In this document: piece by piece, positions 5,201 through 51,132 of the stretch
How the letters are laid out: the number at the start of each line of letters is the position of its first letter
Numbering within the stretch: the stretch's first letter is position 1
Source of the DNA: Amoebophrya sp. A120
Taxonomy: Eukaryota > Protista > Dinoflagellata
Reading direction: 5' to 3'
Length of the DNA: 64,000 bases
Assembly (NCBI GenBank): GCA_905178155.1
Contig: CAJINV010000024.1
Location: 181,964 to 245,963, forward strand
Translations under genes and position numbers: made by a program
Notes under the pieces: generated by a model
Told to the model about the DNA's origin: nothing
The model's database searches: none
The model's input: only the letters and a program-made list of their open reading frames with translations

Positions 5201-8200
5201 GCGCAGCGCCGTCGTCCTGGCGTCGTTTCAAGAGCTCCACTTGTTCCGCACCACCGGTTGTAAGAGTGCCGAGAGCAGTCGTCGAGCTGTAGGAGTAGCT
5301 CTCTTGTTTCGCCAAAAGCGGTAAAAACGCCGTCTGATCGATGTATTCCTCTTCGTAAATGTCTGAAAGCCGGCGGCCCTTCCATTTCGTCGTCTTCCCT
5401 TTCATGTCTTCTTCATTGACCAGGTTCTTCGGTGTTTTCAGCAGCAGCTTCTGATGTCTTTTCTTGCTGGTAGTTCCACCACGACCTACTTCGCCTGGCT
5501 GCAAACTCGCAAAATCATTCTGAAGATCATCTCCTTCTGGCGTCTCCAAATACTTCAGCACCGTCTGCGCGTCCCACCGCCTTTCCCACCGCCACCGCAG
5601 CGTGACCTGCAGTAATGATACCAGATGGCCGAATAGCGCGGCGTCCTGCTCTTCCCACCTGCGGGACCTCGAATACAGAATTCGCACCCGGGAATCCGCC
5701 ACGGCGAACTGCGCCCGCATCCCGCAGCCCTCTAAATGCTCGTACGGCGCCCGCCCGTACAGCAATTGATATAGGATGATCCCCAGGGCCCAAACATCCT
5801 GAGGAAAATAAAACGCACCCACGCCAGAGTTGTAATGCAGATTTGCAAAGACAGGAAGACTTGTAATGCGCCTCGGCATGAGAGCCATTTCCAATCGTGT
5901 TTTGGAATTTGTGATGCTGTGAACAGGATGAGCAGATGAATCTGTGATGCGGCTGCACTTGCTAACCTGCACTACACTGCAAAGTGAAACTTGTCATGCG
6001 TGACTCACAAAACTCCTAGGTTTGTGTTGCAAAATCCCCATCCTGACTCTGGTGTGGGTACGTTTTTACTCAGGATACCAAACATCAGCCGCCGGGCGCA
6101 TCTTCAAACTCGCGGACCCCTCGTCCGGCTGGTAAAAAGCCTCGGGCGGCATGTAGCGGGGCGTGCCGCACTGGCGGTCGCGGGAAACGTGGGTGATCCC
6201 CTCATCCTTGTTGATCCCCCTCGCGAGGCCGAAATCAGAGACCTTCACGATGTTGTCCACGATGAGGAAATTCGCCGGTTTGAGATCAAAGTGGATCAAC
6301 CCGAGACTGTGGATGGCCGCGACGCCAGCGACCATGTCGCGCCAGAGATTGCGGATGTCGTAGATAGAAAAGATTTCGTAGTTTTTCCGAAGAAAGGAGT
6401 GCAGGTTGGGTATCGGAGGGGAAAGGAGGTGCGTTGGTTGTCCGATGGAGAGGATATTTTGTCATGCTCATCTATCACGTGGTACAAAATGGAAATGACA
6501 AATTACATGCGCCTGCGGCTGCACGACTCCTACGAGTCAATGAATATGCACAAGCTGCTTCTTGCCGCACACATCATGCATGCCATCTTCTTAATCGCGG
6601 TTTAGAATCAGAAAAACTTAACTATCTCTATCAAACAAACCAACGCAAGCATTATTCCACCCCATACCACAGTCCGCGAATTCCAGCAAAATGTGGATCA
6701 CCAAATCTTTTGGAAAAAATTTCGCTTCGCCGATCATCTTCACTACCCGGAGCTCGTCCACCGCGTTGTGTCTACCATTCTGGGCACTAGTTCCGGCCTT
6801 CGCTGCTCGATTCTTGTCCCGCAAAGCCCGCAGCCAGTTTACCTCCATGGCGAAGGAGCGCATTTGCCTCGCGTCCCGAGCATAGACGACTTTGAGTGCG
6901 TAGCGGGTAACGGATAACTGAGAACCTTGCTCGTTGGTTCGACTTGCACTGCTGCTGCTTCCATTGGGCTGACCACTTCGCGACGCATCATAATTGCAGC
7001 TATAGTTGCCCCCACGACTTCCCGCCGTTGCCGAGGTCGTAGTAGTCGATCCTCCATCTGCGACACACGTTCGCAGATCAACGCACTCGAACACCTCCGC
7101 CGACCCGCCCTTCCCGATCCGCTTCACAACTTCGAGCAATATAGTCGGCTTGTTGAAGTCCACGTGATGGCTGTCAACGACGTGTTCCCCCATGCAGATG
7201 ACCATGCCGGGGCCAACGCGGGCGGTGGCGGTCACGGCGATGTTTCTCCGCTGGATAAACGCAGCCGTGGAGAGTAGCGAGTCGTTTTCCCGGTACGAAG
7301 TCCGGCAGTCCTCGTCGTTGAAATACTCCGGTAGGTCGCTCGGTGAATTGAGAAAAGGGGCGTTGTGGCGGCCGTAGACGGGAATCGTGCTGCAGCCCGC
7401 GGGGGTGGAAACAACCTCAGCATAAGAACGGCGATCGGAAACACCGCGGAGGATGCCATCAGGCGCGGGAGGAGTCTCGACCTTTTGTTCCGCGCGTCTG
7501 GAAGCTATCGGCGCAGAATCCTCCGGGACGATAGGCGCGTGGCGGATTTCGGCCTTGGTGTCGTGGCTGCACCCTCCAGAGCTGGTAGTGTCACGAGGAT
7601 TTCTGATATGAAAGCCGCGACGTCCATATTTCTCCGCTTCAGGCTGAGCCTCTTCTTGATTCTGGTGAAGCACTGACTCCACATTTCGCTGTAGGTCGTT
7701 ACTGCTTCGTGTACCAACCACAGCCACTTTTGGCAAATCCGCCTGGTAGACGAAGTCTTGCAGTCCTTGAGGCTGCTGATCGTTTTGCCCAGCATTTTGG
7801 TGTCGCTCCTGCGGTGTGGCGGGCCGTGTGTCAACATTTTCGCAGTCGGCATTGCTGTCGAAACTGGTTTCCCTGTTTTGTTCCAGCCGTCCTGTGCCTG
7901 GGCGGGAGTTCTTGTGCTTGTTGTCGCGATAGGCATCAGTGAGGCCCGCATGGTCCTCAACATCATGTCTGACCCTGGGAGCAGCCACGGAATAAGATCT
8001 CTCGGAGGGGGTCTCCCTGTTCGGATTGTAGGACGAATATTGGTCAAGGTCATCTCGTGTCGCCGCAGGCCGGATTTCCACTTGGCCGGGGCCAGGGCGC
8101 CGCGCAGGAGGAGGAGTTCCACCACCTACATCGATTCTTAATATCACATCATCCTCAATCGTACTTGTCGCTGCCGGTCTCCTGGCATCGTTTTGGTCTT

Positions 8201-8723
8201 GGTAATACGAGCTTCCATAATTACCGGTGGGCAAAGTGGTGTTCACTATGCCGTCGTACGACGTCGCGTTATTTCGTTCATGGGCGCGAGGGTCACGTGG
8301 CCCAACAACGTCTCGTGCCGCTTGCCGCTCATACGCTGCCTCTTCTCGGACACCTCTTCCCGGTGTATGTTGTCCCACGTCGGCTCCAGCATTTGCGGCC
8401 TGTGCATGACAAACTTTCGGTTCGAAATCGAATGTGGTCGCAGTATGCAACGCCGACGTTGCTTGTGTAGGGACGGGGGCGACGGGTAAAGGGTAGCTGG
8501 GTACGTCATGCTCTTCTTGAACGAAGCGCGCACGGTTATTTTCGAAGCGTCTATTCTTGTTACCCGGCTCTGCTAAGTCGCGGGCGGGATTAGTAGCTCC
8601 ACATGGCTCTATGGCACCGTGCGGATCTGGATGGTGAGGGTTAAAATTTTTACGTTGGTCAGATGGAATCGCGGGTCGTGGGGGATTGTCGTTGAAATGG
8701 TGGTTGCGCCGGTCGTCGCTCAT
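2271..8723 (-). CDS. Mps1/TTK-like protein kinase with C-terminal TM segment and long low-complexity regions (3 exons, ~1967 aa)
   Basis: Exons 8723-6668, 6406-6079, 5790-2271 total 5904 nt and join in frame. Motifs: IGKGGSAEV, YALK, LEFADC|DL, IHFDLKPANFL, SDFGLA, QCGTPRYMPPEA, DVW|ALGIILYQLLYGRAPY. HxDLKPANFL and GTxxYMPPEA match the Mps1/TTK family. Confidence 0.85.
5795..6077. mobile_element. TAT-TIR introner, family B
   Basis: TIR catcctgagg..cccacgccagagt / actctggtgtgggtacgtttttactcaggata; DR ccaaa/ccaaa; splits DVW|ALG. Confidence 0.9.
6411..6666. mobile_element. degenerate TAT-TIR introner
   Basis: Ends tatcggagggg / ccaccccata; DR lost; removal of 6407-6667 gives C-D-L in frame. 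Confidence 0.7.
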
Positions 8724-9934
8724 AGGGGCCAGGTTGCGCCACAGTCAGAGGGAACACCAGTCACTGGATTTTAAGTAGGTAAAAATAAAGGGGTGTCGCT
8801 CCGTTTGTCGATGTCGATGTTCTGCCGTTCGTTATTTATTATACAACTTTTACTCGTCGAAAGAAATACTCGCAAACCCTTTTCGGGGCGGCGGATGAGA
8901 TACTACAACTGCATGCGCAAAAATGCGATCCTCGTGAAGAGGACTGCTCGTCCCGGATGCGTCTTTCAGCCTGTTCTCGCGCTCTTCGGATCGTCTCCAC
9001 CCGCGGCTACGAGATTGTGAAAACGCCTTCAGATGAGCAACAAGCTTGTGCTCCGTGCGGGTTTGGTGTTGGCCTCTTCTCGACTCGAAGGTAGATACAA
9101 CTGCTCCATGCGACGTGTCGGTCTCGGTGGGTTCTTCAATTGTACAAATAAACTCCTTTCTAAAGATGGAAAGTCGCAGAGCATTTCTTTATCTATGAAT
9201 TTATTGCGTGCTGAAAGAAACTGAAACCGGTGGGGTGGATGCTGAGTGTCTTACAAAATTTTTTCTGCTCGTCCGGCATCTACTTATCATATCTGGAAAA
9301 ATGAAACGGTGAAAAGTGAAAGCGGTTCTTCTTCTCTAGATTCATAACCCGTATATCGATAATTAAAACAATGTTGAGAGACCACAATAAAAGAGCTTCC
9401 AAGTTGTGCTACTCATCATACACTAAACTCCAGAAACATTGCAGGCTGTCAAAGGCAGTCATCTCTTGGAGGAATAGAATTATCTAGGGCTATGTCTACG
9501 TACTGAAACAATGGTCGCCAATATACCGCAACCACAACTGCCCGTGCCTGAAGCGATGTTGAAAAAACGATTGTCTTTATTGAAACACATAGAGTGGTGC
9601 TGAGACGATGCCACGACGACGAGAGGCGATCCGACAAAGCGACTAGATACTTACGAGTAGATTTTTGTTACGAAGCGATTCTAATTGCATTTCGTGAAAA
9701 GAAGCAGATGATTTTCACAGGCAAGATCAGTTTGGGCGATGAGAAGTCAAAAAAGGTTTTTCGATTTCGACTTTTGCGAATTAGTGTTCATCTTGAGCGC
9801 CTCGCACTACTAGTGCCATTTCTGCATGTCAAGGTGTGTAATTTCTATAAACTGCCAGCCGGAGATGCACTATGTTGGAAATGGATCACGGTGATGAACT
9901 ATGTTGGATGAAATGGATTGTATATGCGTCGGTC

Positions 9935-11230
9935 TTGTATTTTTATTTTTTCAGTTTTTTTTTGCAAATTAGTCGTGCCTTGGGGCAAATGCCCAGCAAC
10001 TGCGGAGGGGGAGGGGCAGCGGAGGGTGTAGACGGCACATGCAGATGAACCGCAGTGCCGTCCTGGTAGCAGAAGTGTAAGAATATATGGCATCTGCTTT
10101 CAAAAAGTAAGCACTTTGCACTTTTAGTATTATCCGCAGCTAATTCTGGGTCTACACGACTGCAACTTGCCCTCCGCCCCCCCTCCGCTAGGCGAGTGCC
10201 AAGAGGTGATGCCATGCTGAAAAGCTTTTATATGCGTTTTTACTTTTGTTTCTCGCTTTTTTTGTCGATTTCGCAAACTTTTAAAATTCAGCATGCTATG
10301 AGGAACATGCCCAGCAACTGCGGAGGGGTAGCGGAGGGTGTAGACGGCACATGCAAAATCGCAGTGCCGTCCTGGTAGCAGAAGTTTAATAATAAACGAC
10401 ATCTGCTGCCAAAAAGTAAGCACTTTCGACTTTTAGTACTATCCGCAGCTAATTCTGGGTCTACACGACTGCAACTTGCCCTCCGCCCCCCCTCCGCTAG
10501 GCGAGTGTCAAGAGGTGATGCCATGCTGAAAAGCTTTTATATGCGTTTTTACTTTTGTTTCTCGCTTTTTTTGTCGGTCTTGCAAGTTTTCAAAATTCAG
10601 CATGCTATGAGGAACATGCCCAGCAACTGCGGAGGGGTAGCGGAGGATGTAGACGGCACATGCAGAATCGCAGTGCGAGTGCCGTCCTGGTAGCAGAAAT
10701 TTAATAATAAACGACATCTGCTGCCAAAAAGTAAACACTTTTGACTTTTAGTACTCTCCGCAGCTAATGCTGGGTCTAATCGACTGCAACTTGACCTCCG
10801 CCCCCCCTCCGCTAAGCGAGTGGCAAGAGGTGATACCATGCTGAAAAGCTTTTTATGCGTTTTTACTTTTGTTTTTCGCTTTTTTTGTCGGTCTTGCAAG
10901 TTTTCAAAATTCAGCATGCTATGAGGAACATGCGCAGCAACTGCGGAGGGGTAGCGGAGGGTGTAGACGGCACATGCAGAATCGCAGTGCCGTGCTGGTA
11001 GCAGAAGTGTGATAATAGATGGCGTCTGCTTTCAAAAAGTAAGCGCTTTGCACTTTTAGTACTATCCGCAGCTAATTCTGGGTCTAATCGACTGCAACTT
11101 GCCCTCCGCCCCCCCTCCGCTAGCCGAGTGTCAAGACGTGACACCATGCTGAAAAGCTTTTTATGCGTTTTTGCTTTTGTTTTTCGTTTTTTTTTGTCGG
11201 TTTCGCAAACTTTTAAACTTCAGCATGCTA
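9935..11230. repeat. ~310-bp tandem repeat, ~4 copies
   Basis: cagcaactgcggaggg anchor recurs near 9993, 10312, 10622, 10935; units highly similar. Confidence 0.9.
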
Positions 11231-13445
11231 TACGTATACGGATTCAAAATCATATACAATCCATTTCCAACACGCATATACGTGAGTCTGGTGATTCACC
11301 AGACTCACTGACATTGACCTTGATGTAGTAGGTGATCTCATCGCAAGTGAAGGTTATCGGAGGAGCAGGTAGTATTTTGAGAATAGGACTGTGCAACCCA
11401 TAATCAAATGTCCATCTTCCTCCTGCATGCTGCAACTGCGATAGCGATTTTAAAAGTTCGTTGGGCTATTTATACATGGAGTGCAGAAACGATTTTTATG
11501 ATCATGTTGATCCTGCATCCGTAGCCTGAAACCGTGTTGCTCTTCTTCGAGTGGACGAAGTTGTGGTGGGAAGGAGAAGAATTACAGTAGAGGTGCGGTT
11601 ATGTCGATCATAATGGTTCATTATCACCTGCTCTTCGAACCGGCACAACTCCATAGCGCATTTTGATTGAACCGTCGAGAAGTAGTTGCTTTGGCATCCT
11701 CCTCAAGAAGCGGCCGATTAACAGGTGTTGTTGTCTTCGCCCATTGCGTATATTGATTTTTCGCCAAGCACAAGCTCCTGCATCAGCATCGCCTACAACA
11801 GCGTCATTTTCTCATTTCTGTGAATAGCTAGAAGAACAAACCGGGGGAAGTCGGACGAGGTCGAGGACATACACTTCTACTCTACTCTAGGCCTATAGCC
11901 TTAACCACAAATTCAGCAACACTGCGACAGTCCTGACGCAACATATTCCAACAGATGAGAACGAACTTGTTCTACATGCAATCATCGAACAAGGAGAAGA
12001 ACGGCACAACCCGCGGCTGACGCAAGGAACAGAGCGAGATTTTAGCTTTCGCATCGCATTCATCTTCGTGTACTAGTCGTGAAAGAGCAGAGCAGCCGGC
12101 CGCAGTTGCAGCAGGAGCAACGGTAGACGACCTAGCCTGCATAGCCGCTGTCACTGTAGGCTAGGTATAGCGTAGCTGCAACGGCGGCTAGCTGCTGTCA
12201 GCACTGCAGACGAGGAAACAGCTGCGGATTCTTTCAGCAACTGTCTCGTCTGCATGGTATAAATATATAGTTTTTTTGTCATCATAAGCTTTTGGTACAA
12301 GGGATAGAAATTTATTTTCAACTGCTGCTCCTTCCGTGTTTCTTTTTCATCCTCGATCAAATTTTTTGATTTTGCCACAACGCAATTGATCGACATAATT
12401 CCTTCCTGTCGTGATGCGGTGGCTACTGACTTGCTAACTTTCAAGTCAAAAACTCTCATCGACCACCTACGTGTAATGCTGGATCATGACCGGGGATCAG
12501 AATTTGTAATGCTAATTTTGAATATCCTACTTGTTTGTGATGCTAATTGTAATTATCGAATAGTAATAGACTCACTACGGTTGAGATGATGGACAAAAAC
12601 CACAAATGTTCGTAGTTCGCGTTTCGTGTTTGTCAGCTTGTGATGCTAGTTCTGCCATGCTACGTACCTCTTCGCGACCTGGGCCACAACCATTGTTGCG
12701 TACCACAGTCGTGGCATGACATGCTTTTTAGTTTTTTATATAGAGTCGTTACGTTCCTACTTTTCAATATCCTGTCCACATAACGGCACAGAAATATTTT
12801 GGTTACACAGGTGAAACATTTTTCAAAAAATCTTCCCACGATGAAAGGTTTTGTGAGACAGGATTTGATCGCCGTGGAATAAAAGGTTTCAATTTACTGT
12901 GGATCGTCATCGTCTATGAATTGTATGTTGGTAAAAATAACCGGAATTTCTTCCCTATTGACTTCTGACAAACATCGACACTTCTTCTATAATACTAGCT
13001 GGTCGTGAATGCACCAGATTTCCTACAGATACTATAGACTCCGAGTCGTCGTGAGACTTCCTCGACTTCCGAACCCGTGCTCTCCCGAAGTAGACTTACT
13101 CGAAAAGGAGAGAGGTTTCATGACTAAAGTGCATCTATTGAATGAGTTTGGACTATTAAATACGTGCTGGTAGGCCGCTTTATGATGACAGTCATCTTAC
13201 GTTAAAAATAGAAAAACAAAACAAGTACAGAACTGGCTGAGATGAAGTTTGTTCATGGAAATAAAGTAAAGTCACTTGTGGTAGGAGGTATTCAGCTAGA
13301 ATTCCAAACATTTGCATTTCAGAAAAAATATTAGTAGCGAGAAACCTATTGTACAATTTTGGAGGAAGAGCAGAAGAATAAAAGAAGACCGCTACAACTA
13401 CGTTTTTCCGCAACTACTACAGCGCTTAACGAAAGAAGCCCTACT

Positions 13446-16400
13446 TTACTTGACCTCCTTCAAAAAGCGGAAATAGAGTTTCTTGGCCAGCAGCCGGTGC
13501 TTCTTTGACTTCGCGTACCAGGCGGCGTCGTGACCGTGGTGGCACTTCTGCTCCGGGTCGGCTCCGTAGTGGAGGATTAAGAAGTGGCACAGGTCTTCCT
13601 TCCCCGTTTTCGCCGCGTAGTGCAAAATGGTCTGTCCGTTGTTGGGCCACTTGTTGTCGAGTGCCTTCCAGCCCTGGTTGTTGAGCATCTTGAAGCACTT
13701 CTTGTACTCCGCCGGCACCAGCTCCTCGGCTTATCCTGTGCAAAAGTATCGCACTCGTAGTAATTGCATTTATGCATTACAAATCTCTTTCTCAAGGTAA
13801 ATCCGCATTACAAATTGAATTTGTAATGCTGGGCTAATTTGTGATGCAATTGATACTAGTACGATGCTTTTGCATTGCATACGGCTTCGTACGGAGACAT
13901 GATGTCACTCGCCTTGATTACTTTCTCCTGTATGAGAGTGCACAACTCGCCCTCCCCCTCATCTGTATTTTTGATTTTGCATGAACAGCAATACAAACAC
14001 TTGCACGAGTGGAGCCCCCTGCGCATGACAAATTCATGTGCCTAGTGTAAATAGTACTGTTTGGGCGCTGTCCGGAATCTGTGATGCATGATAGTGACGC
14101 GAGAAACCAATTTGATTTGGGATTTTGCATGAGAAATGAGAACGAGGGGGAGTTATGCAGTTTCATATCCTGGCCGGCCACGTTAGAAGGCATGCCGGAT
14201 TTATCAAATGTAAAAGTGTCTGGGTCTAGAAGATTCTGAGACTTGTCATGCATGTTTTGCATGACCCAGGACGTCTGTAATGCACGCCCTAGCATCACAG
14301 ATTTTTAGACGGCTTCCTGATGCCTACTCCGCATGACAAACGCCCTCCCCGCGTAGCACAAACTAGACCCCTGCTTTTGCTGGTCATGCAATACAGAGTC
14401 TTTTAGAGACCGAAGTTAGCATCACAAGTTCCAACCTTCCAGACCCCGACATTTTTGCATTTGATAGGATTTCTCATCCAGGAGGTCATTGCTGTTCGCG
14501 CCGTCGTCCAGCTTGCTCTGGGCCTGCGCCTTCTTAGCCGCTTCCAGCTTCTTGCGCAACTCCGGATTCTTCTGCAACTGGTACTTCCACTCCTTCGCGA
14601 AAACCTGTTCGTTCGCCGGATTCGAAAAATCGATGTCTTCCGCCGGAAAACTGACCATCAGGGCCGAGAACTCTTCGAAGAGCGAGTTTTTCTTCTTCGG
14701 GTTCGCCAAATCAATGGCCTTCTTGCCGAAATCGTCGATCACGTGCACCTGCTGCTTGATAATCGTTTCGTCCAGGTTGAGCACTAGGTAGTCGAAGAGA
14801 GGCTTGTTATTCTTTTTCGCCGCGTAGTGGAAGAAAGTGCCACCGCCGGTCTTGTGGGCCAATATGCATTGCGAATATGTTTGGGTCTGGAAACTTGTGA
14901 TGCAAGGACGGGGAAAATAGTGACTACACTGTAATGCGCTGCCAAGCATGACAAGTTTTTCCGTGGTTCTGCTTCTGAGTAGCGTACTCCGCATGAGAAA
15001 CTGCGTTTTTGCATGACAGGCGAGCGGAGCTCTTCGCGGCCACGGCGCAATACAGAGTTCAGAGTCCTGCCAGACTAGCACGACAAATCTCGCAATCAAT
15101 CTCCCAGACCCATACTTGTATTTGATAGCCAACTGCTGCTGGCAATTCTCGTTGTCAAACCCGAGTTCCTTGTATGCCAGCGCACAACTCCCCCTCCCCC
15201 GCATTTGTATTGCATAAGTACATACAACAGCATTACAAACGCCAGCGACCCTGGAGCCTGTGCACGACAAATTTATGTACCTACTGTATGGTACTGTTTG
15301 GGCTTTTGAATAAATTTGTCATGCAAACAGTGCCACAGGGCAGCGACTGGAACTGGGGTTTTGCATGACAAATAAGGGGGAGGAGGAGTTGTGCACTGTC
15401 ATACCTTGCACATCCGGAACATCTTCCCGTAAAAGTCGCACAGACCAAAGTCGTGTTCCTCGTCGTAGATCTTCGTGCCGTCCGACCGGCCCGATTTGTT
15501 GGACGCCATGGACTATGAACTGCAAAAGTATCGTACTCGTATAAATGCATTACAAATTTCCTCAGCATGAGAAATAAAATTTGTAATGCTGATTTACCTT
15601 TAACAAAAGGATTTGTAATGCATGATTGCAATACGAGTACGATACTTTTGCACAGGATATGGACTCTTTGCTCATCATGGACTGCCGCAGCTGGTCCTTG
15701 TTCGGGACCAATTGGATCATGATCTGCCCGTTGCTGAATATGCATTGCAAACCTGTCTGGGTCCTCTGGAAGGATGCAACTTGTCATGCTATATCCGGAT
15801 CGTGCAAAGATCTGTGTTGCATGAGTGCCAAAATAAGCTGTCCACTTTCGACGAAGTTGGGAGGACACTTCTCATGCAGGATACTAGGCATGACAGAGAC
15901 CACCTCACAGAGTCTGTCATGCTAGGTCCCGCATTCCAGACCTCGTGGGTCATGGAGAGAAGATTGCATGACAAGTTTACATTTTTCTAGATGTAGACGT
16001 ATTTGCATTTGATACTGAAGGGGTTGTCGCTAAACATCGAGGTATTCACATTGTCGTCCCACGAAATGGATCGATTGTTCAGGAAGGCGTTGTTCGTCCC
16101 ATTCATTTATGCATTGCAAATATGTCTGGGTCTGGAAGGTTATATATAACTTGGCATGCTAAATCTCGATCGTGCCAAAAATTTGTGTTGCGTGATTACC
16201 AAAAGATGTCCACTTTTGAACAAGTTCAGCGGCAGTTTCTCATGCAGGATAGGTATGATAGCTGTTTCACAGAATCTGTCATGCTAGGTCCTACATGCCA
16301 GACGTCATGGGTTATGAAACATCTACATTACAAGTCTTGCATTCTTCCAGGCCCAGACATTTTTGCATTTGATATCATCGGACTGTCGTCGAAATTAGGA

Positions 16401-18160
16401 CCGTAGAAACCACCTCCATTCATGTTGCCAAAAGGACCACCGGCGGCACTGTCCACCGTGATGCCTCGACTGATGGGGGACGACGGGGCCGCCGTTATCG
16501 TAAGGGAAAATCCCCCCTCCCCGTATCGAAAAGGTATGTCTCAGAAAATTTGCAATGCAGATTTGTGACCACGAATCGTCTCTGTCTTGCAAAAACGCAA
16601 CTCCACCGGCTCCGCCGCAATCTTCTGCAGGCGGTTTGTAATGCTGTTGGCCCTACAGACTAGACATTTGCCATGCTCAGCGTCCAGCCCAAAACATCTA
16701 CTCAGTCTTAGTATAGGCCTATAGAAGTCCTCTCCAGCAAGACAAATCTGATTTGTGTACGCAAATCCAGCATCAGAAACTTCGGCTTCATATGGAGAGG
16801 AGGGATTTTTACTTTTGATAGCCGTGGAAGGCGTATCCGGCCAGTAATTCTGCATGTTGCCGCCAGAATTGGCGTCGGCAGGGACTTATGCATTGCAAAT
16901 ATCGATCTGGGTCTGGACGAAAGGTGGAACTTGTAATGCTAGTCTTACACTCCTGCGAAATGTGTATTGCATAAAAGCAGCAAAAGCGCCAAACTTTCGT
17001 CATGCACAGTCGACGCAGTTTGTGATGCGCACTACGCATGCGAAAGCGCTCCAAAGGTTTGTCATGCTTCACTGGACTACTTAAAGGCGCACTCAATCAT
17101 GACGACTCAGCATCACAAATTTCCACACCACCGAGATGACATATTTGCGGTTGATAGGACCAAGCTCTTCCCCATCATCGCGACCATGTTATTATTGTTG
17201 TAGTACAGATTGTTCATGTAGTTTTCTTTTCCCAGCATCTGCATGGCCTGGTGATGCGAAAACCCGTTGTGCTGTTCCTTGGTCTGCGTCCGCCAATTCG
17301 CGTCATTCAGGTTGGCGAAATCAGTGCCGGCATTTTCCTATGAATTGCAAAAGCATCGTACTAGTATGAATTGCATTACAAATTGGCTCAGCATGACAAA
17401 TGGAATTTCTCATGCTGATTTAGCATGAAAAAGCTAATTTGTCTTGCAGAACTGCAATCGGTAGTTGTACCAGTACGATGCCTTTGCACCGGATATTTCC
17501 CCGCCAGCGCTGAAGTAATCCGAGTTCCAGTACTCCAAGGGATATCCTGAGCAAAAGCGTGCCCACCCCAGAGTCAAGATGGGGATCTCGCAACACAAAT
17601 CCAGAAGTTGTGGCTGTAGCGCATGACAAATTGCCGCTCGTAGTGTAGTTCAGGTTAGCGAGGTCATCCGCATTACAAACCCAGCTGCTCATCCTGTTTA
17701 CAGCATCACAAATTTCAAAACACGATTGAAAATGCATTTCATGGGGATGCGCATCACAAGTTTGCTTGTCGTTGCCAATCTGCATGACAACTATGGCGTG
17801 GGGACGTTTTTACTCAGGATAAGGGGGCCGCGTCGCGCTGCCCCGCCTGCAGCTGGATCGGAACCTGGTGCAGAATATGGATTGCAAAAATGTCTGGGGC
17901 TGGAAGAATGCAACTTGTCATGCTGAATCTGAATCATGTAGAAATCTGTGTTGCATGAGTGCCAAAAGCTGTCCACTTTCGACCAATTTTGGAGGGAGTT
18001 TCTCATGCAGGATAGGCATGGCAGAGACCTCGCAGACTCTGTCATGCTAGGTCCCGCATTCCAGATCTCACGAATCATGGAAAACCTGCATGACAAGTTT
18101 ACACTCTTCCAGACCCAGACATATTTGCATTTGATACAGAAGCGGTTGCGCCATTTTCAT
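13446..18160 (-). CDS. ankyrin-repeat protein, 14 exons separated by 13 introners
   Basis: Continuous frame after removing 13 elements: MKMAQPLLHQVPIQ...GGTFFHYAAKKNNKPLFDYLV...NGQTILHYAAKTGKEDLCHFLILHYGADP...KEVK*. Two ankyrin-type HYAA motifs. Confidence 0.85.
13732..13881. mobile_element. introner, family C (short)
   Basis: tatcctgtgcaaaagtatcg / cgatgcttttgcattgcata; DR cggct/cggct. Confidence 0.9.
13931..14167. mobile_element. introner, family D
   Basis: tatgagagtgcacaactc / gagttatgcagtttcata; DR tcctg/tcctg. Confidence 0.9.
14202..14466. mobile_element. introner, family A
   Basis: tatcaaatgtaaaagtgtctgggtct / agaccccgacatttttgcatttgata; DR ggatt/ggatt. Confidence 0.9.
14863..15127. 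mobile_element. introner, family A
   Basis: TAT..gggtctgg TIRs; DR gccaa/gccaa. Confidence 0.9.
15173..15403. mobile_element. introner, family D
   Basis: DR ccttg/ccttg; predicted intron has GT..AG ends. Confidence 0.9.
15514..15659. mobile_element. introner, family C
   Basis: tgcaaaagtatcgtactcgta / tacgagtacgatacttttgca; DR tggac/tggac. Confidence 0.9.
15739..16014. mobile_element. introner, family A
   Basis: TAT/ATA ends; DR ctgaa/ctgaa. Confidence 0.9.
16108..16374. mobile_element. introner, family A
   Basis: TIRs; DR tcatt/tcatc. Confidence 0.9.
16496..16820. mobile_element. introner, family E
   Basis: tatcgtaagggaaaatccc / gggatttttacttttgata; DR gccgt/gccgt. Confidence 0.9.
16887..17156. 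mobile_element. introner, family A-like
   Basis: TAT/ATA ends; DR ggact/ggacc. Confidence 0.85.
17339..17495. mobile_element. introner, family C
   Basis: TIRs; DR tttcc/tttcc. Confidence 0.9.
17543..17821. mobile_element. introner, family B
   Basis: tatcctgag / ctcaggata; DR aggga/agggg. Confidence 0.9.
17876..18136. mobile_element. introner, family A
   Basis: TIRs; DR cagaa/cagaa. Confidence 0.9.
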
Positions 18161-39700: not shown

Positions 39701-42621
39701 CTGGTGGCGACGCAAGTGCCAGCAATACACGGAACGTTGAGTCGTGGTCTTCTGCACCTGTGCAGTCCACTCCCTCCCGCACAGATCCAAGTCCAACATA
39801 AGAAGTGTAAGTATGGTGTTCCACTTATGCGTTCCACTACGAAGATCATATTGAAAATAGTAGTCAAGTAAGTCAAGTAAACACACTTTTTTTTGTTCGA
39901 TAGTCCACCAGCTGCTTGGCCTCGGTCTGCGCGGCTCGCACGACACTTTCTGCGTCGGTCTGCCTGGCCCGAATGTCGGCCAGCACCTCCCTCTTCGCCT
40001 TCGCCGCCTGTTCTTCAAACGTGCTCGACAGCTTCTCCAGTTCCGTCTTTGCGTGCTGCTGAAGGGCCGAAACCGCCGCTTCTGACGCTTTGTCGAGGTC
40101 CCCGAGACTTTCCTGCACCGTTTTTTCGATCTGTCCGGCCAGGGTTGCACCCCGGACCTCGCCCTCGTGCTCGGGCGACGCGAGCCAGCCAGTTTGATGC
40201 AAGTGTAACTGGTGGCCACCGGCGGCAGGCGCATCCCCGACCGCGAACCCTGCATCCGCTTCTCCGGCCGTTGGTACCGCCGAGTGGTCCAATCCCGCGT
40301 GTTGAAGGTCCCGCTTCACCTCGAGGACGCACATGTCGATAAGAGATGTCATGGTATGGCGGAAAGTGGCTCGCAGACTGTCGCACACCCGGTCGTCGAA
40401 AGTGTCCGTAGGCAGCTTCACCGAGGTATCAACGGAAGACAAATGCATCTGGGTCAGGAGAGTGATGGCGCGACGTACTTGTGTTTACACAGACATCTGT
40501 GTAAAACTTCATCTTGCATCATGAGCTCCAATAAATGAAGTTGCAGCACGCTTCTGGTTTTCTACAAAGATACGAGGTTAACAAATAATATTCGTATGCG
40601 GGACACCAGGCATGTCAAGACCTACGAAGAGGCTGTACTTTGCATGCGTAACCGCCCAAAAAAAAAGGATGACAATTATAGTAAGAACTGCACTTCTGCT
40701 CCAGAAGACCCAGTCGGAAAAAAATTTGCAGTGGATACGAGACGAGGTCCACCAACTCCTCCGGCACCGCGTTGGGAGCTCCATCAGACATTGAGGAGGA
40801 GGAACTACTAGTCCCCGCCCCGATCGGCGGACGACCGTTGTGGAGCGCGGCGACCGCTTCTATCAAAAGGAAAAGCCACCCTTTCCCATGTCGAGAACGA
40901 AATTTGTGATGCTGTATTTTTTGCGTCCACAAATCGGATTTGTGTTACTGGAGAGGACTGCAGGCCCCTACCGAGCATAAGACGAGCGCTTTTTGTCTAG
41001 GGGCTTAGCATGAAAAACCGCCTATCAGCATGAGCATGACAAACCGCCTGCATAAGGCGGCGGGGCCTGTGGAGTTGCCTTCTTGCAAGACAGATGCGAT
41101 TGGTGGCCACATATCAGCAACACAAATTTTCGAAAACGCACCTGATCAATATGGGGAGGGGGGATTTTTCCTTTTGATACCTTCCGCGTGCTTGATACTG
41201 GCTCGAATGCTCTGGTGCAGGTTGTCCAGGAGCGACTCGTAATCCGTCAGGTGGCCCGCGCACAACCGCCGGAACTTTTGGGCGAAAGTATTCGCTGCCT
41301 GCTCGATCGATGCGCTCCTGGTGTCGGTGTGCAAGTCCTCGAAAATAGCGCCCGCCCATCGATTGGAAATATGTGTGTGTGTGTCGGGAAAAATGCAAGC
41401 AACTTTGTCATGCACATTTTGCATGACCCAGCATCACAGATTTTGAAGTAAGGCTTTCTTGATACATCTACTAGTGCCCTTATTATGTCTTTGCGCATCA
41501 TGATTAGACGTTCCCATACTGGAGTTCTTTTGCTGCTCATGCACATGCAATACAGATTTCTATAGAATCCAAAGGCAGCATGACAACTTGCACTCTTCCA
41601 GACCCAGACAACTACATATGCGCAATGCATATTGCCGGATCTTCGCTTATTGCTGCCCGCCGGTCTGCGATGGCCTGTACAGCGACTGCCACTCCCCGGT
41701 CCAAGTCGCGGAGCCGCGAAAGGCTACTGGTCACCTGAGACGATTCATGTAAGACTTTCTTCGATAACTCACCTTTTGTCTTACTCGTAGGAACTGAAAT
41801 GGTTATTGCATTTGAGAACAAATAGATGAGGCGGGAAAAGAGCATAAGTACTTAGTGTCGTCCGGCTATACAGTGTTGCGTATCCATTTCCACGACGGGC
41901 TAAATTTTTCTCATCTTTGGAAATCCTTTAAAAATGTACTTACGAGTTAGAGTACGTTCTCTGCCTGCAGTGTGTCCTTGACGGTATTGAAGTGGTCCCG
42001 AAACTTGCGGTCGTACCCCTGGAACCGGCGGTCGTACTTGGCCAGCACTTCCATCAGACTCTTGTACACGTTACCGTGAAACTGCAGTCTGCCGTCTCTT
42101 TCCTCATCGTCTGCGTCGATTACCGAGTCGCTTTCACTAGACCCGGCATCTTCCCCCGTACTGAGATCCCACTTTTCGATGATGTCTTCCATCCGCTTCA
42201 ACAGTTTGGACAACTCGGTCGCACTGTACGTGAGGAACTGGCCCGTCTCACTTTTGACCGCCAAGGCCAAGCTGCCAGGTCCTTCGGTGTAAAACAACCG
42301 CTGCTCCTCCTCCTCGGCGACGGTTCGGGCGGCCCCTGGCTGCGAAACGGACGGCGAACCTGCGCCGGCGGAGGACCTCGCGACGCCCGCCTCGAAATCG
42401 ATCGCGTCCCGCATGTCGCTCGCAGACCCCAAGTCGCGCACCAGGTTCGCGGCCTGCTGCTTCACCTGTATCGCTGCTTGCACCTCCGCGCGCGATGGCA
42501 GAGTCGAAGATGCGTTTACGTTGTCCAATGGCTGTCCCGCGTGCGACGAAGACGACGTTGAATTGGCGCCCGCAGAGGACGACTTCGATGTGGCAGCCGG
42601 GAGTTGTGCTGTGGACGACAT
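36738..42621 (-). CDS. hypothetical coiled-coil protein with a C-proximal TM helix; 11 introners plus an unresolved intron
   Basis: MSSTAQLPAATSK...; Ala/Glu/Lys-rich exons join in frame; TM-like KFFIVLIVVFVAMLGNLVVL. The intron at ~41785-41955 and the stop position are uncertain. Confidence 0.7.
36758..37046. mobile_element. introner
   Basis: tatcctccggaaaagcac / gtgcatctcggtaggata; DR agaag/agaac. Confidence 0.8.
37158..37424. mobile_element. introner, family A (diverged)
   Basis: tatcca / tggata; DR decayed ccatg/cgccg; frame restored on removal. Confidence 0.75.
37491..37839. mobile_element. introner (diverged)
   Basis: tatcgtaacggaaagacac / gtgttttcctctcgata; DR decayed; frame restored (EQL|DG). 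Confidence 0.75.
38106..38385. mobile_element. introner, family B
   Basis: DR cgagg/cgagg; reverse-complement homologue of 5795-6077. Confidence 0.9.
38514..38786. mobile_element. introner, family A (diverged)
   Basis: TAT/ATA ends; DR ctcaa/ctctc. Confidence 0.8.
38855..39137. mobile_element. introner, family B
   Basis: tattctgtgtaaaaac / gtttttccacagaata; DR cgtct/cgtct. Confidence 0.9.
39244..39517. mobile_element. introner, family A
   Basis: TIRs; DR catcc/catcc. Confidence 0.9.
39602..39902. mobile_element. introner, family F (diverged)
   Basis: tatgcaaaagcaaaagtg / cacttttttttgttcgata; DR tttca/gtcca; frame restored. Confidence 0.75.
40442..40737. mobile_element. degenerate introner
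   Basis: Right end tttgcagtggata is clear, left end eroded (aatgcat); frame restored (LVS|SVD). Confidence 0.6.
40861..41179. mobile_element. introner, family E
   Basis: tatcaaaaggaaaa / ttttccttttgata; DR gcttc/ccttc; inverted homologue of 16496-16820; predicted intron is GT..AG. Confidence 0.9.
41357..41631. mobile_element. introner, family A (diverged)
   Basis: DR ccgcc/ttgcc; frame restored (DPA|GAIF). Confidence 0.75.
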
Positions 42622-43995
42622 GACAACGAGAACGAACACTACAGGAACAGGATCGCAAAAATAATCAAAACCGCAGTATGTATAACGATCCTCAACGAAA
42701 ATAAAAGTACCCGTGGACAACACCAATGCCAACCTAGATGTAGATAAGAACAAGAAGCGAGTACTAGATCATAAAAGGGATCAACTCTTTCTGTTTTCTT
42801 CAACAACTACTGAAAGGTTACTTACATCAAGGGCAACAGAAAACTTCTTTTCTCGGGGTAGGGAGTCAGCTGCAGGTGGAGCGGATTAGATTCACAAAGA
42901 CAGTGGACCAGGCGCACAACGCGGCGCCGTCACCATCGGTTTGATGAAGCCATCAAGAAGATCAATGACTGTGAACTATGAACAGAAAAAAACACGCCCG
43001 AGCTAAGGGAAAGTCAACTACCGCAATTATTCCGAAAAAACGACAGCGAGAAAGCCGTACTGATGAACAGGAACAAACGAGATCTGCTTAATGCGCAGCG
43101 GCTCAGCAAAGGCAAGCACCATGCTTCTGCCTCTTCCATGACGCGAAGTGCACAATCGAAGCAATTCATTGCAGCTCGATGCCCGAGCGCGAGTAATGAT
43201 CTCGTCCGGTGGTCCGAAAAAAAATCGAGCTTCGCTCACCCGAGCCTCACTTTCAACCTCGAGCGAAACTCAATCTCCGCCGCAGCACGATGAATTAGAT
43301 ACACGCTTGCGAAAATTTTCTTGTGCAGCTTCTCGACCCAGTGCGGCATCAACGAGACTTTTCTAAAAGGATTTTTCGTTTTTTCTCTAAAGTGGTGTAG
43401 GTCATTTAATAGTGTACATTTATTTCTCGTAAAACATAGATATAACCGACGTGCACGTGACAACCAGAAAGCAATGTTTGAATAACCTTCGTGGAATTTG
43501 CTTTTGCCTGCGGTGGGCACCTCTCTATAACTGTGGTCTTGCTATATACTAGACTACGTCACTTAAAACTTTTTTTCCAACGACGTGCGATAATAATCGT
43601 TGGACAGCGACAACGATTTATTGAAGGGCAACTATAATTTTCTGCTTCTGTGAAAACAATTTAAAATACACTGCCACTACCGGCAAATCTAGTAAGTTGG
43701 AATCGACGAAACGGTGATGTGAAAAGGGAATTATACTGTGTAGCTTTTGACATAAGAAGAAATGGCCCAGATTGACACTGTCCAGAATGATTTGTCGTGA
43801 GGTTCTTAGTACTTGAAGATCTTTCATTCTGTAAAACTATCAACAACAACACCAATGTAAAAGATAAATTTGGAAACGCCAACGTATAAGAATCACTGTA
43901 AGAATCTTCAACAAAAAACTTCCTGCTCCGCACACTGGCACTTGCTTCTTGTCCTACTTCTTCATCTCCATCGAAGAAAGCGAAGTGCCTTCCTT

Positions 43996-46986
43996 CTACG
44001 GTGCGGCTCCCTCCGTGAAGCTTGCGGCACCCCCCGCGAAGCTGTCAATCGCCACCTTGCAGTGCTGGACGTACGTGGAGTCCACCTTGGATTCGGCCTT
44101 CGCGACCACGTCCTTATCAAATGTAAAAGTGTCTGGGTATGGAAGATTCTGAGATTTGCCATGCATGTTTTGCATGACCCAGGATGTCTGTAATGCACGA
44201 CCGCGCATCACAGATTTTGAGCGGGCTTCCTGATGCCTACTCCGCATGACAAACGCTCTCCCCGCGTAGCATCAACTAGACTCCTCTTGCTGGTCATGCA
44301 ATACAGATTTTTCTACAGTCCAAACTTAGCATCACAAGTTCCAATCTGCCAGACCCAGACATTTTTACATTTGATAGTCCTTGAGCTGCCGCCATTCCTC
44401 CGCGGAAAGAAATCCGCTCTGGTTCTCAAACAGCGTGGTGAGGGATTGCAGCAGGTGTTTGGTTTTCGAAACGCGCCGGAACGACGGCTCCGGGTACACG
44501 TTGAACAGAGGGTATGGGAGGGTAAACACAACTTTCCACAAAGGGAACTACTTCCCGCGGGTGCTATTTGATGGCACCAGCCAACATTCGAGTGAACAAA
44601 TAAGTTCCGGCTAATTTTACTGTGGGAGTTTGAGTTTATTAGTCGAAGTACATCTTCAATAATGCATTTATTAGCTTCAGGCACTTCGAGCACAAAGTGC
44701 AAAAAAAGCTGCAGCACCCCAGGACTTTTAGCAGGTGAAAAAGATCATGCGCAGAACAAATCCAGCCGTCAGTAATAGGGCAAAATCCTTCTCCTGAAAG
44801 TTGCATCAAGTGGATAGCTTCCGAAACGATTTCACGGCAAAAGCGACCTGGGATTCTCGGTCCAGTTTGAGCACGACCAGTTTCTGCTTCTCAAACTCTT
44901 CCTTGACCTGTTGTGCGAATACTGCATTCGTGTCTTCAGTGATAAGTGCGAGTCCGGTAAAAAAACCTAGCTTCCATCAATAAGATCTAGCATTCAAGTT
45001 GTAGGATCGGAGAACAATGCCAAATTTGTACAACTCAGGCGAGTGTATGCGTACCTTAAACAAATCCCCGACTGCCACGTCCGTTTTTTTCTGCCGCTCG
45101 TTCAGCTTTTCAATCGTCGTGTTCTGGACGGTAAGCTCGGTCTGCACTTCATGCTTGATTTGGTGTTGCGATTCTTGCAGTTGCGCGAATTTTTGGTTAA
45201 GCGCCACAAATATGCTAGCTTCAGGTAAGGAAACGTCAAAACGAGACTCGCCTGTCACGCAGCAGAGAATTCCAGTTTCGACGCCGATAGTAAGCCTGCT
45301 GGCACTAAAAACGAAAAGGTTGTGGAACGAAAGTGCCTAGAGCAATCAACATCTTTCCAACAAACGGCATGTCGAAACGTTTGCTTTTGTATTTCAGAAA
45401 AATTTGTCATGCGCCATCTAGAAATGCTCGGTCCAAAAACTGCGTGGTATCACTTGTGCGATTCACACAGTTTTTTCGTTTTTGACGCTGCCCCCTCTGT
45501 CACTCTGATAACCAGCTCTTCCCGGTGCTCCGCCTGACATTCCTTTAGTGCCTCCTGCACCTATCAACCGCAAATGTGCCTGGGTCTGGAAAACCAGCAA
45601 CCTCTATTGCTCGGCTAGCATGACTGGAAGTGGAAACGGAAAATCTGTATTGCATGACCGACATGAGCGCGACCTCTTTCGTCATGCAAACCCCGCAGGT
45701 CGTAATGCGCGCTCCGCATGAGAAAGTGCCGACAGAAAAATTTGCTATGCTAGAAGGCATGCGAGACGAGGATGCTGAGTCATCACAACCCAGCATCACA
45801 AGTTTCGTTTAGGCCCAGACGCAGTTGCATTTGATAGCACCTTCTCAGCGACGATTTCGCTAATGTAATGCTCGGCCCTACTGTTCAGCATCTCCTGCAC
45901 CCCCGCCGGCGCGCCGGCGTCCACCTCCGCCGTTCCGACGTAGGCCATGGCTTCTTCCATCGGCGTGCCGATCTGTTCCCCCGACGCGGCCAGCAGGTTC
46001 TGTTCCACCGACCCGGCCATGGCTTCTTCCATCGGCGTGCCGATCTGTTCCCCCGACGCGGCCAGCAGGTTCTGTTCCACCGACCCGGCCATGGCTTCTT
46101 CCATCGGCGTGCCGACCTGTTCCCCCGACGCGGCCAGCAGGTTCTGTTCCACCGACCCGGCCATGGCTTCTTCCATCGGCGTGCCGACCTGTTCCCCCGA
46201 CGCGGCCAGCAGGTTCTGTTCCACCGACCCGGCCATGGCTTCTTCCATCGGCGTGCCGACCTGTTCCCCCGACGCGGCCAGCAGGTTCTGTTCCACCGAC
46301 CCGGCCATGGCTTCTTCCATCGGCGTGCCGACCTGTTCCCCCGACGCGGCCAGCAGGTTCTGTTCCACCGACCCGGCCATGGCTTCTTCCATCGGCGTGC
46401 CGACCTGTTCCCCCGACGCGGCCAGCAGGTTCTGTTCCACCGACCCGGCCATGGCTTCTTCCATCGGCGTGCCGACCTGTTCCCCCGACGCGGCCAGCAG
46501 GTTCTGTTCCACCGACCCGGCCATGGCTTCTTCCATCGGCGTGCCGACCTGTTCCCCCGACGCGGCCAGCAGGTTCTGTTCCACCGACCCGGCCATGGCT
46601 TCTTCCATCGGCGTGCCGACCTGTTCCCCCGACGCGGCCAGCAGGTTCTGTTCCACCGACCCGGCCATGGCTTCTTCCATCGGCGTGCCGACCTGTTCCC
46701 CCGACGCGGCCAGCAGGTTCTGTTCCACCGACCCGGCCATGGCTTCTTCCATCGGCGTGCCGACCTGTTCCCCCGACGCGGCCAGCAGGTTCTGTTCCAC
46801 CGACCCGGCCATGGCTTCTTCCATCGGCGTGCCGACCTGTTCCCCCGACGCGGCCAGCAGGTTCTGTTCCACCGACCCGCCGGAGGGCTTCTCTCCAGAT
46901 GGAATCCAGGTAATATCGTCCTTCCCCGCGTCCGGTTCTTCGGCTTTCATAGCCATGTCTCCAGTGTCGCTTAATATCTGTGGCAT
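43996..46986 (-). CDS. hypothetical protein with 13 x 24-aa acidic repeats and a coiled-coil region; 4 introners and at least 1 GT-type intron
   Basis: MPQILSD...(GSVEQNLLAASGEQVGTPMEEAMA)13...EKV|QEALK...EL|VALNQKF...FRK|LFNVYPEP...LKD|VVAK...AAP*. Confidence 0.75.
44115..44376. mobile_element. introner, family A
   Basis: DR gtcct/gtcct; closely similar to 14202-14466. Confidence 0.9.
44513..44816. mobile_element. highly degenerate introner
   Basis: Only tatg / gata ends remain; the boundary rule restores the frame. Confidence 0.55.
45211..45510. mobile_element. degenerate introner
   Basis: tatg / gata ends; DR acaaa/accag; frame restored. Confidence 0.65.
45562..45836. mobile_element. 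introner, family A
   Basis: TIRs; DR gcacc/gcacc. Confidence 0.9.
45943..46878. repeat. 72-bp coding tandem repeat, 13 copies
   Basis: Units identical except one base (Val to Ile) in two copies. Confidence 0.95.
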
Positions 46987-48685: not shown

Positions 48686-51132
48686 CTAATGGGACCCCTC
48701 CCACAACCCCACTCCCTGCAAGGCGAGACGCGTGCGGAAGCCCAAGCGAAAACCGTGCTTCGTAGCCATGACCGCTCGCACAGTTTTCTCGAGGGTACTC
48801 TGGTCCGCCCGGGCTACATCGCCCTCGTCGGCGATCACCGAGCCGATTTCGATATGCATTGCAAAAGTATCCCAATATCAGTACTGTACTTATGAGTACT
48901 GCATCTCGACGAGTTTGATGTCATGCTGGTCCAAGTAGAAGTGCTTGCCTGCTTGGAAGCCACGAGATTTATTTGTTCATCTCTGCATGGTGGTTGCACA
49001 AATTTGTAAAACTTTTGCGATCCTTTTGCACAAGATACTCCAGCATCTTGTTTCGCGTGGTCTTGTCTGCTATCAAATGTAAAAATGTCTGGGTCTGGAA
49101 GATTGGAACTTGAGATGCTAGCTTTGAACTCTAGAAAAATCTGTATTGCATGACCAGCAAGCAGAGTCTAGTTCGTGCTACGCGGGAAGGGCGTTTGTCA
49201 TGCGGAGTAGGCATCAGGAAGCCAGCGCAAAATCTGTGATGCGCGGTCGTGCATTACAGAAATCCTGGGTGATGCAAAACATGCATGACAAGTCTCAGAA
49301 TCTTCCAGACCCAGACATTTTTACATTTGATATCTGCGACCATCGCCGCGATGGAACCCACGAGATCTCCGACCTCGCCCCGTTGCTGGCGACTCGACAG
49401 AAAGGCCAACTGGATTTGATTTTTTTTTTTGCCTACCACAGCATACTTAGCAAGATCGATGATTCAAATTGCATTTCATGCGCCCTCCAACCTCATCTTC
49501 AACCAACAAATAGTACTTTCTTTTCCTGCTGCAGCAGCTCGTACTGGAAGGCCGACCGGTCGCTGGCCTGCATCAGCTTGATCTCCTCGATTTTATCAGT
49601 GAAGCCCCGCCATCCTGAGTAAAAACGTCCCCACCCCAGAGTTGTCATGCAAATGCATTTTGTCGTCGTGTTTCGAAATTTGTCATGCTCCAATCGGCAT
49701 GCTGCGCTGGATCTGTGATGCTGCTCAACTAGCTAAACAGGATCACACTATGAGGCCAAATTTGTCATGCAGAACTCCCAAAACTTGGAGATTTGTGTTG
49801 CAGACTTCCCATCTTGACTATGGTGTGGGGATGCTTTTACATATGATACCCGCACGATGGCGCTCATCCGCTTCTCCAGGTCCTTGTGCAGAGCCGCGAT
49901 CTGCCGCTCCACCGCCATCTTCGCATTCTGGGACTTCGTAGCTGATTCCGCCCTCAGCGCCATCGTATGGATTGCAAGAATGTCTTGGTCTGGAAGATTG
50001 TAATGCTGTCTCTGGATTCTAAAAAAAGGTGTATTGCATGACCAGCAAGAGCTCTCCAGTTTGTGCTATGCAGAGAGGGCATTCCTCATGTGCTGGTAGA
50101 GGCATCGCAAAGTCCTCTAAAAATATGCAACGCTAGGGCATGCATCACAGACATCATTTCATAGGTCATGCAAAATATGCATGACAAACCTGGCAATCTT
50201 GCAGCCCCAGACATTTTTGCAGTTGATACATCGCCTTCGCCCCCAACTCCTTCTCGAACGCGCACGAAAGCTCTTCCTTCAAAGCGGCCTATCATATGTA
50301 AAAACGCCCCCACCCCATAGTCAAGTTGGGAACTTAGCAACACAAATCCAGAACTTTTGGGAGCCACGCATGACAAGTGGCAGTCCGTAGTGTGGTGCAT
50401 GTTAGTAAGGACAACGGCATCACAAATCCATCTGCTTATCCTGTTTGCAGCATTACAAATTCCAAAGCACGACTGGCAATGCCTCTCATGGAGATGCGCA
50501 TTACAAATCTTCCTGTAGTCGCAATTCTGCATCACAACTCTGGGGTGGGGACGTTTTTACACAGGATACGGCCACCGCCGTCGTCACCTCTTTCTTCACC
50601 TCCTCCTGGGTGAAGATCTTCAGTTTGCCTTCCAGCTCCTCTGCGATCTCCTTCTTCAGGGATTCCCGGAGAGCCGGGACCTCGTCTCGACCGAGGTACA
50701 GTTCGGGCTTGGACCGCAGATACTCCGGTGCCGCGGCCTATCAAATGTAAAAATGTCTGGGTCTGGAAGAATCCAACTTGTCATGCAAATTTTGGATTCT
50801 AAAAAAATCTGTATTGCATGAGCAGCAAAGAGAGCCAAGTTTTCCTACACAGAAAGAGCATTTGTCATGCGGTATAGGCATCAGGAAGCCCTCACAAAAT
50901 CTGTGATGCTAGGGCATGCATCACAGACATCAGGAGTCATGCAAAATGTGCATGACAAGCCTGGCAATCTTCCAGACCCAGACACTTTTACATTTGATAC
51001 GGCCGCAGCCTTGGCCGGCGCGCGCGTCTCTCCTTGCGTCGAAGCCGGCTGAAACGCGGGAGCGAAGGTTTTTTTCACTCCCCCACGCAACAGCGGCGTC
51101 AGGTTCAGGTCACGAGACGGCGAGTCCGGCAT
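48686..51132 (-). CDS. hypothetical coiled-coil protein; 6 introners and GT-AG intron 49410-49516
   Basis: MPDSPSRDLNL...AAPEYLRSKPEL...LRESLKKEIAEELEGK...ML|EIGSVIAD...WEGSH*; the start may lie further upstream. Confidence 0.75.
48853..49037. mobile_element. introner, family C (diverged)
   Basis: tatgcattgcaaaag / cttttgcacaagata; DR ttcga/ctcca. Confidence 0.8.
49071..49332. mobile_element. introner, family A
   Basis: Long near-perfect TIR; DR tctgc/tctgc; inverted copy of 44115-44376. Confidence 0.9.
49611..49848. mobile_element. introner, family B
   Basis: TIRs; DR cccgc/cccgc. Confidence 0.9.
49966..50228. mobile_element. introner, family A
   Basis: TIRs; DR catcg/catcg. Confidence 0.9.
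50290..50568. mobile_element. introner, family B
   Basis: TIRs; DR cggcc/cggcc. Confidence 0.9.
50739..50999. mobile_element. introner, family A
   Basis: TIRs; DR cggcc/cggcc. Confidence 0.9.

Follow-up and report, generated by a model that had tools for sequence, protein, structure and literature searches.

Small inverted-repeat elements of Amoebophrya sp. A120 appear to function as introns in either orientation, with a single cut register

More than 60% of the introns of the dinoflagellates Amoebophrya A120 and A25 are reported to be non-canonical, and how they are spliced was left as an open question (Farhat 2021, PMC7789003). That paper describes A120 introners as elements of about 240 nt in co-oriented genes, with non-canonical ends, hairpins, an inverted repeat (IR) of TAT, seven variable bases and AAA, and direct repeats of 3-5 nt (5 bp in the legend of Fig. 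S19). It presents the splice sites as variable relative to the hairpin and the spliceosome of A120 and A25 as nearly complete, with U1 undetected; the available parts of its text and supplement discuss orientation for genes only. A120 introner families were later classed mostly as "TIR DNA", with mixed mechanism calls and target site duplications (TSDs) of 2-5 in the 21 of 58 A120 rows of Dataset S7 available to us (Gozashti 2025, PMC12130899). The filter of that study demanded matching orientation; the method of Gozashti 2022 permits opposite-orientation matches (PMC9860276). Here we analyze 64,000 nt of Amoebophrya sp. A120 DNA (GCA_905178155.1, contig CAJINV010000024.1, positions 181,964 to 245,963 of the forward strand; hereafter the window), which holds about 56 small elements with TAT…ATA ends, terminal inverted repeats (TIRs) and a 5-bp TSD. 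By their anatomy, these are very probably the published A120 introners, and the literature already describes both the elements and their nature as DNA transposons. They show the same IR (TAT, seven variable bases, three or more A), a direct repeat of the 3-5 nt class bordering exon and intron, repetition, removal from RNA and mostly non-GT-AG ends. What differs from the published description is that they occur in both orientations, with one 5-bp TSD and one cut register. Their use in either direction without canonical sites, and the one register they share, seem to be additions to the published picture; we found no report of either in Amoebophrya in the open literature, although Figs 3, S19 and S23 of Farhat may show part of the geometry.

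In Polarella glacialis and Aureococcus anophagefferens, DNA elements with TIRs and TSDs likewise serve as introns in either orientation (Roy et al. preprint 10.1101/2020.10.14.339549, which describes them in Polarella and, for Aureococcus, refers to them by citation). As described there, those elements carry or recruit G[TCA] and AG and need a suitable TSD, and their simple classes are orientation-biased. The window elements are unlike them in that no particular TSD sequence is favored and GT or AG is required at neither end. A reading of this stretch made from its letters alone (the sequence-only reading) had taken use in two orientations as pointing, by itself, to structure-based recognition. 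That step fails, because the introners of Polarella and Aureococcus use canonical sites and yet function in both orientations.

The introns of Euglena and of hemistasiid diplonemids, as far as they are treated in the accessible parts of PMC12501133, PMC12621601 and PMC11282704, share with the window elements non-canonical ends, terminal pairing, direct repeats and a proposed origin from MITEs (miniature inverted-repeat transposable elements). They also share fixed distances from a paired motif to the cuts, with the longer overhang at the 3′ side. Their motif is CDG/CH'G with offsets of 3 and 5-6, whereas here it is TAT/ATA with offsets of 1 and 4, in an unrelated lineage. The Euglena-type signature N3CDG…CH'GN5-6|R is absent from the window elements, which end in N-TAT…ATA-N4; and whereas Euglena has a purine after the 3′ cut, a purine stands there in 170 of 282 strand-called elements from a related assembly (see below), which is background. 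The MITE-derived introns of Fritillaria borealis, as summarized in PMC11282704 and PMC13326754, also have TIRs and TSDs and non-canonical ends, and are removed by a conserved U2 spliceosome. They differ from the Amoebophrya elements in having dominant AG-AC/AT ends and a conserved U1, in contrast to free dinucleotides and a U1 reported as undetected.

Self-BLAST of the window returned many dispersed repeats of 150-350 bp in both orientations. At thresholds of TIR at least 14/20 and TSD at least 4/5, the window holds 39 strong elements, against 0, 0, 0 and 1 in four shuffles. The set of about 56 joins the hits of this TIR and TSD scan with hand curation and three copies added or mended through RNA joints, and is a partial census. 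We set the TSD length at 5 bp because five positions agree, in 46-48 of 56 elements, and agreement drops to 8-15 of 56 at the adjoining positions. The 5′ TAT is present in 54 of 56 elements and A at positions 11-13 in 50-51 of 56; TAT/ATA together with AAA/TTT at positions 11-13 is kept across families.

Four pairs of copies had been proposed as mutual reverse complements, and pairwise alignment bears this out: all four align end to end only in opposite orientation. Over the longer copy, identity is 91% for family B (5795-6077 and 38106-38385), 92% for family A (44115-44376 and 49071-49332), 74% for family E (16496-16820 and 40861-41179) and 83% for family C (13732-13881 and 15514-15659). Palindromic ends are ruled out as the source of this similarity, because interior scores, with the 35-nt ends cut off, still favor the reverse orientation (forward/reverse 14/349 for B, 28/316 for A, 39/221 for E and 41/89 for C; maximum of 300 shuffles, 27). 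The coordinates are exact. Each copy runs from TAT to ATA (the exceptions being ATG at 5795 and ACA at 38106) and is directly abutted by its 5-bp duplication.

These elements are removed from what we take to be messages. Twenty-six window elements are missing from transcript-type contigs, each together with exactly one TSD copy. They cover six of the eight copies named above, and families A, C, D and E are each represented in both orientations. A single 2311-nt contig of run X1 spans the minus-strand gene at 13080-18584 in pieces. Subtracting the 13 elements of this gene, each with one TSD, leaves exactly 2311 nt with a 532-codon frame, in agreement with the displayed breakpoints and with gaps of 73, 484 and 91 nt; four contig pieces are listed, and the junctions are derived from these exact length sums. 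This one gene holds family C both ways (13732 versus 15514 and 17339) and family A both ways (14202 versus 15739, 16108 and 17876). The same length sums are the basis for the removal of 13732, 15514 and 16496.

Between 36600 and 45920, runs X1 and X4, two samples of one study, have 15 joints in common (13 elements and two canonical GT-AG introns; 15 of 17 joints are listed). The joints include B 38106 (a skip of 285 with one TSD), A 44115 (a skip of 267 with one TSD), E 40861 and D both ways (38514 versus 39244). Part of this stretch is a minus-strand host region at 36944-42847, with 10 elements, a canonical GT-AG intron at 41735-41955 and an 874-codon frame. Because canonical GT-AG introns are lost from the X1 and X4 contigs too, we argue that these contigs are mRNA. 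The listed X1 pieces show no differences from the window, one base excepted. Contigs of run X5 read through elements, and raw-read run X8 gave 14 reads, nearly all partial, on element ends.

For the remaining two named copies the evidence comes from coding sequence. The B copy at 5795-6077, with a 5/5 TSD and in the minority orientation for the window, lies in a TTK/Mps1 kinase gene on the minus strand, with a predicted intron at 5791-6078. Its removal with one TSD leaves a continuous kinase alignment through DVW-ALG (50% identity to P0002, the one homolog on which this comparison rests), and keeping it brings in-frame stops. The second orientation of family B is thus assigned by kinase homology, and those of A, C, D and E by RNA-type contigs; with this division, the claim that the families work as introns in either orientation stands. 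A further B copy in the 5795 orientation, at 49611-49848, shares its gene with a B copy lying the other way (50290-50568). The A copy at 49071-49332 has a 20/20 TIR and a 5/5 TSD, and frame continuity suggests both its removal and the strand of its host. The earlier statement that hosts lie on the minus strand is likewise upheld for the kinase gene, the 532-codon gene, the 874-codon frame and a gene for GDP-mannose 4,6-dehydratase (GMD) at 24380-29235. The latter, minus its 13 elements and 2 canonical introns, gives 333 stop-free codons with 67% identity to P0004 over residues 20-333.

Where the cuts fall can be expressed as p, the number of upstream TSD bases retained in the exon. All 13 displayed element joints allow p = 4, and their intersection is p = 4 alone. 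Two diverged elements permit no other value: 37491-37839, with an unambiguous intron at 37487-37840 (TT…CC), and the A-like 41357-41631, which has a TATG 5′ end and an unambiguous intron at 41353-41632 (AT…CG). Two joints are hybrids of both TSD copies. In the GMD gene, TSD mismatches at two elements bracket the same register. At 27380, p below 4 gives a stop; at 28043, p = 5 gives Gln, a residue found in 0 of 132 aligned homologs, 131 of which are hydrophobic there. The TSD mismatch of E 40861-41179 rules out a cut at the TIR edge, and its intron, 40857-41180, is by chance GT-AG. In the old element-like kinase intron at 6411-6666, whose TSD is eroded beyond recognition, the Asp of the single homolog is obtained only at p = 4. 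The data fit one shared register in which the intron is N-TAT…ATA-NNNN, cut 1 nt ahead of the element and 4 nt past it. Because these offsets run with the transcript, whereas elements are found in both orientations, it is the direction of the RNA and not that of the element that the cut follows.

To count orientation more widely, we used 151 partly overlapping loci (530 kb; 75 listed, all from one other, related assembly) retrieved by the TIR pattern. These contain 377 unique elements, against 0 in a 100-kb control, and the TSD is 5/5 in 293. A codon model gave a host strand for 282 elements, and the 95 without a confident call were left out. Its calls agree with those of neighboring elements in 222 of 225 cases; on the window, its own training data, it called 45 of 56 elements minus and none plus, and that training set contained a kinase start cut in the wrong place and a stretch read in the wrong frame. 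The strand calls in the loci are model calls made without an RNA check, and the sample is enriched for family A ends. Window and loci together give 35:29 for A, 17:19 for B, 27:18 for C, 24:11 for D and 16:9 for E, so in this sample the ratio per family, a check proposed earlier for the whole genome, lies close to 50:50 for each of the five large families. At a stricter threshold, 18 of 18 families of three or more members hold both orientations with 0 inconsistent edges, and nearest neighbors of at least 90% identity lie in opposite orientation in 32 of 73 cases. A bias seen in the window (A 2:7; end types 18:5) was not clearly borne out in the loci.

Transposition as DNA, which is already published, is supported here by TIRs, a constant TSD and random orientation. 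Together with their short length, these are the features of a MITE or non-autonomous TIR DNA transposon (TIRs, a TSD of constant length, both orientations), and the elements are likely small, non-autonomous transposons. Insertion would be by a transposase making a 5-nt staggered cut. Reverse splicing, by contrast, would be expected to retain the sense orientation and to carry the intron's own 1+4 terminal bases, and these differ at every site. The preference of the sequence-only reading for DNA transposition over reverse splicing is therefore sustained by the 5-bp TSD, the TIRs, the two orientations and intron ends that differ from element ends. The window and the 151 loci gave 7 long TIR/TSD candidates, none of which was an autonomous partner or held a transposase, and a 4.2-kb candidate in locus L065 proved to be two separate elements flanking a host exon. 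In viral contigs, a search with the TIR pattern gave 0 hits.

The elements lack canonical U2 intron ends (G[TCA] at the 5′ side, AG at the 3′ side). At the inferred register, 2 of 56 window elements are GT-AG, and 10 of 56 are G[TCA]-AG at any equivalent register. Of the 282 elements in the loci, 92 have G at +1 and 27 have AG as the final two bases, both equal to flanking background. Conventional signals of its own in each orientation would have undercut the case for an unconventional mechanism; we looked for them and found no GT or AG enrichment in the 56 and 282 elements, and background GT and AG rates rule out concealed canonical sites in each orientation. Beyond exon composition, the TSD shows no sequence preference in the 282. 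Two positions appear to behave in a polar manner. At the 5′ end, +2 is T in 282 of 282, and its mirror base varies in 6; at the 3′ end, -7 is A with 1 exception, versus 8 for its mirror base (Fisher p 0.0014). The sole +2 exception in the window has a G-C start. The four canonical introns mapped in the window start with GTA and so share T at +2 and A at +3 with the elements. These weak polar signals, U at +2 and A at -7, hint at a relaxed spliceosome.

Pairing between intron ends was predicted, with offset registers allowed, for 29 introns: the 26 removed from RNA plus 6411, 5795 and 49071. At least 18 end-to-end pairs are expected in 27 of the 29, among them old copies whose TSDs have eroded. 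For three canonical introns the expectation is 0-3.4 pairs, and 25 random segments have a median of 0.5 and a maximum of 18.1. An end-closing stem of the Euglena type is thus predicted in 27 of 29. Several introns that seemed unpaired in register turned out, for the most part, to pair with an offset. At 6411-6666 and 45211-45510, predicted pairing persists after TSD decay. Sense and antisense strands fold with equal energy (p 0.25, n = 166), which is what two-way use requires.

We propose that paired, mirror-image ends guide excision by a relaxed spliceosome, an account we regard as evenly poised. Transcription of either strand would give a pre-mRNA whose two TIRs pair to form a long stem. This stem would draw the intron ends together, perhaps in place of U1. 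The base ahead of the 5′ TIR would be taken as +1, putting the T and A of the TIR at +2 and +3 as in GTA donors. The first A of the terminal ATA, at -7, may serve as branch point, and the 3′ splice site would be counted from it, with AG not needed. Of the upstream TSD four bases would stay in the exon, and of the downstream TSD one, and therefore the original message would be restored at any insertion site, in either orientation.

Several observations weigh against this proposal or against parts of the picture on which it builds. The RNA nature of X1 and X4 is a guess, and both come from a single study. Taken singly, no more than two of the RNA junctions determine the register. The spliced introns 39602 and 40427 have just 8-10 expected end pairs. 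The sense strand has no excess of G·U over A·C pairs (37 versus 33 in the window, 169 versus 217 in the loci), so strand-specific selection on an RNA stem is not seen. Lariat, branch point and spliceosome dependence enter the proposal as conjecture, with the conserved A at -7 as a hint of a branch point. Exceptions at the polar positions number just 15 in the loci and were singled out after 22 positions had been viewed; four or five of them have one possibly inherited end variant, and one copy has it at the 3′ end (L051). Finally, family D at 24:11 (p 0.04, uncorrected) and end types at 18:5 in the window and 60:43 in the loci (p 0.11) allow a mild orientation bias. Symmetric, structure-based recognition, as first suggested, is in this light partly borne out: the predicted hairpins favor a role for structure and the missing G·U excess does not, and both the cut, placed 1 before and 4 after, and the weak constraints at U+2 and A-7 are polar.

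Among other explanations, the one that survives best is that a non-spliceosomal, structure-guided endonuclease cuts the TIR stem with a 3-nt stagger and a ligase joins the exons, as proposed for the nonconventional introns of Euglena. GT and AG are both unenriched, the geometry is fixed to the stem with the longer overhang at the 3′ side as in the Euglena signature, old copies still have predicted end pairing, and U1 is undetected in A120 and A25. We nonetheless think it rather unlikely: the four canonical window introns, which start with GTA, have the same T at +2 and A at +3, the constraints at U+2 and A-7 appear polar, and the sense strand lacks the G·U excess. More doubtful still is a pure reading of sequence, by which the spliceosome or a protein would recognize N-UAU where the intron begins (5′) and both a U-tract and AUA where it ends (3′). 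The TIR would supply both in either orientation, and the hairpin would be a by-product of transposon anatomy. The lack of sense-strand selection on pairing, the weak pairing of two spliced introns and the conservation of TAT/ATA and AAA/TTT across families all speak for it. However, a 3-base motif is frequent in AT-rich elements, so a further cue would be needed, and predicted pairing outlasts the TSD in 6411-6666 and 45211-45510. It is very improbable that the element-less contigs are DNA of a form without insertions, or that one orientation is mostly retained in mRNA and hidden by contigs: X1 and X4 are RNA by conjecture, contigs are blind to efficiency and rare forms, and the second orientation of family B comes from homology, but the same contigs skip two canonical GT-AG introns, the X1 pieces match the window to within one base, the X5 contigs contain elements and two joints are TSD hybrids.

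Other features of the window and the loci deserve mention. The motif TGT[ACG][AT]TGC occurs at 14/kb in elements versus 0.5/kb elsewhere in the window, is present in 99% of elements and points inward from both ends (e.g., 44115-44376); it is a candidate site, common to all families, for a transposase or an RNA-binding factor. Two elements in the loci are swollen by internal insertions to 972 bp (L058:5001-5972) and 481 bp (L039:571-1051), with TIRs and a perfect TSD kept. A family C element at 24204-24352 appears to lie within a canonical intron or past the GMD coding end, and not in an exon; therefore not every copy need itself be an intron, and a few of the 56 (e.g., 24204, 54236) are not established as such. 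The TTK/Mps1-like kinase gene (2200-8800) has long low-complexity flanks, with few elements outside the kinase domain. Long tandem repeats occupy 9960-11231 (unit about 320 bp), 20620-24166 (about 203 bp) and 45943-46897 (about 72 bp); the third seems to be in coding sequence, at 98-99% identity. An assembly gap at 31750-32150 is bordered by CAACAACT-type and CCCCGCGA-type simple repeats, and a 79-bp direct repeat (92% identity; 30295-30369 and 31259-31335) surrounds a 900-bp stretch.

Taken together, we lean slightly toward the view that Amoebophrya has a second, orientation-blind splicing code. Under it, whatever insert has paired TAT…ATA repeats as its borders would be excised at +1/-4 from the stem, all four junction-defining bases would be free except for U+2, and a DNA transposon would be silent anywhere in an exon, either way around. 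The machinery would be either a U1-less, hairpin-measuring spliceosome or an endonuclease-ligase parallel to that of Euglena. If the apparent diversity of splice sites is one register, fixed by which way the transcript runs past a symmetric element end, there would be one predicted branch position, one stem and one offset to test. The register rule, if true, would also correct gene models. It would further explain the large invasion, since no particular target sequence or orientation would be needed, unlike for the introners of Aureococcus or Polarella.

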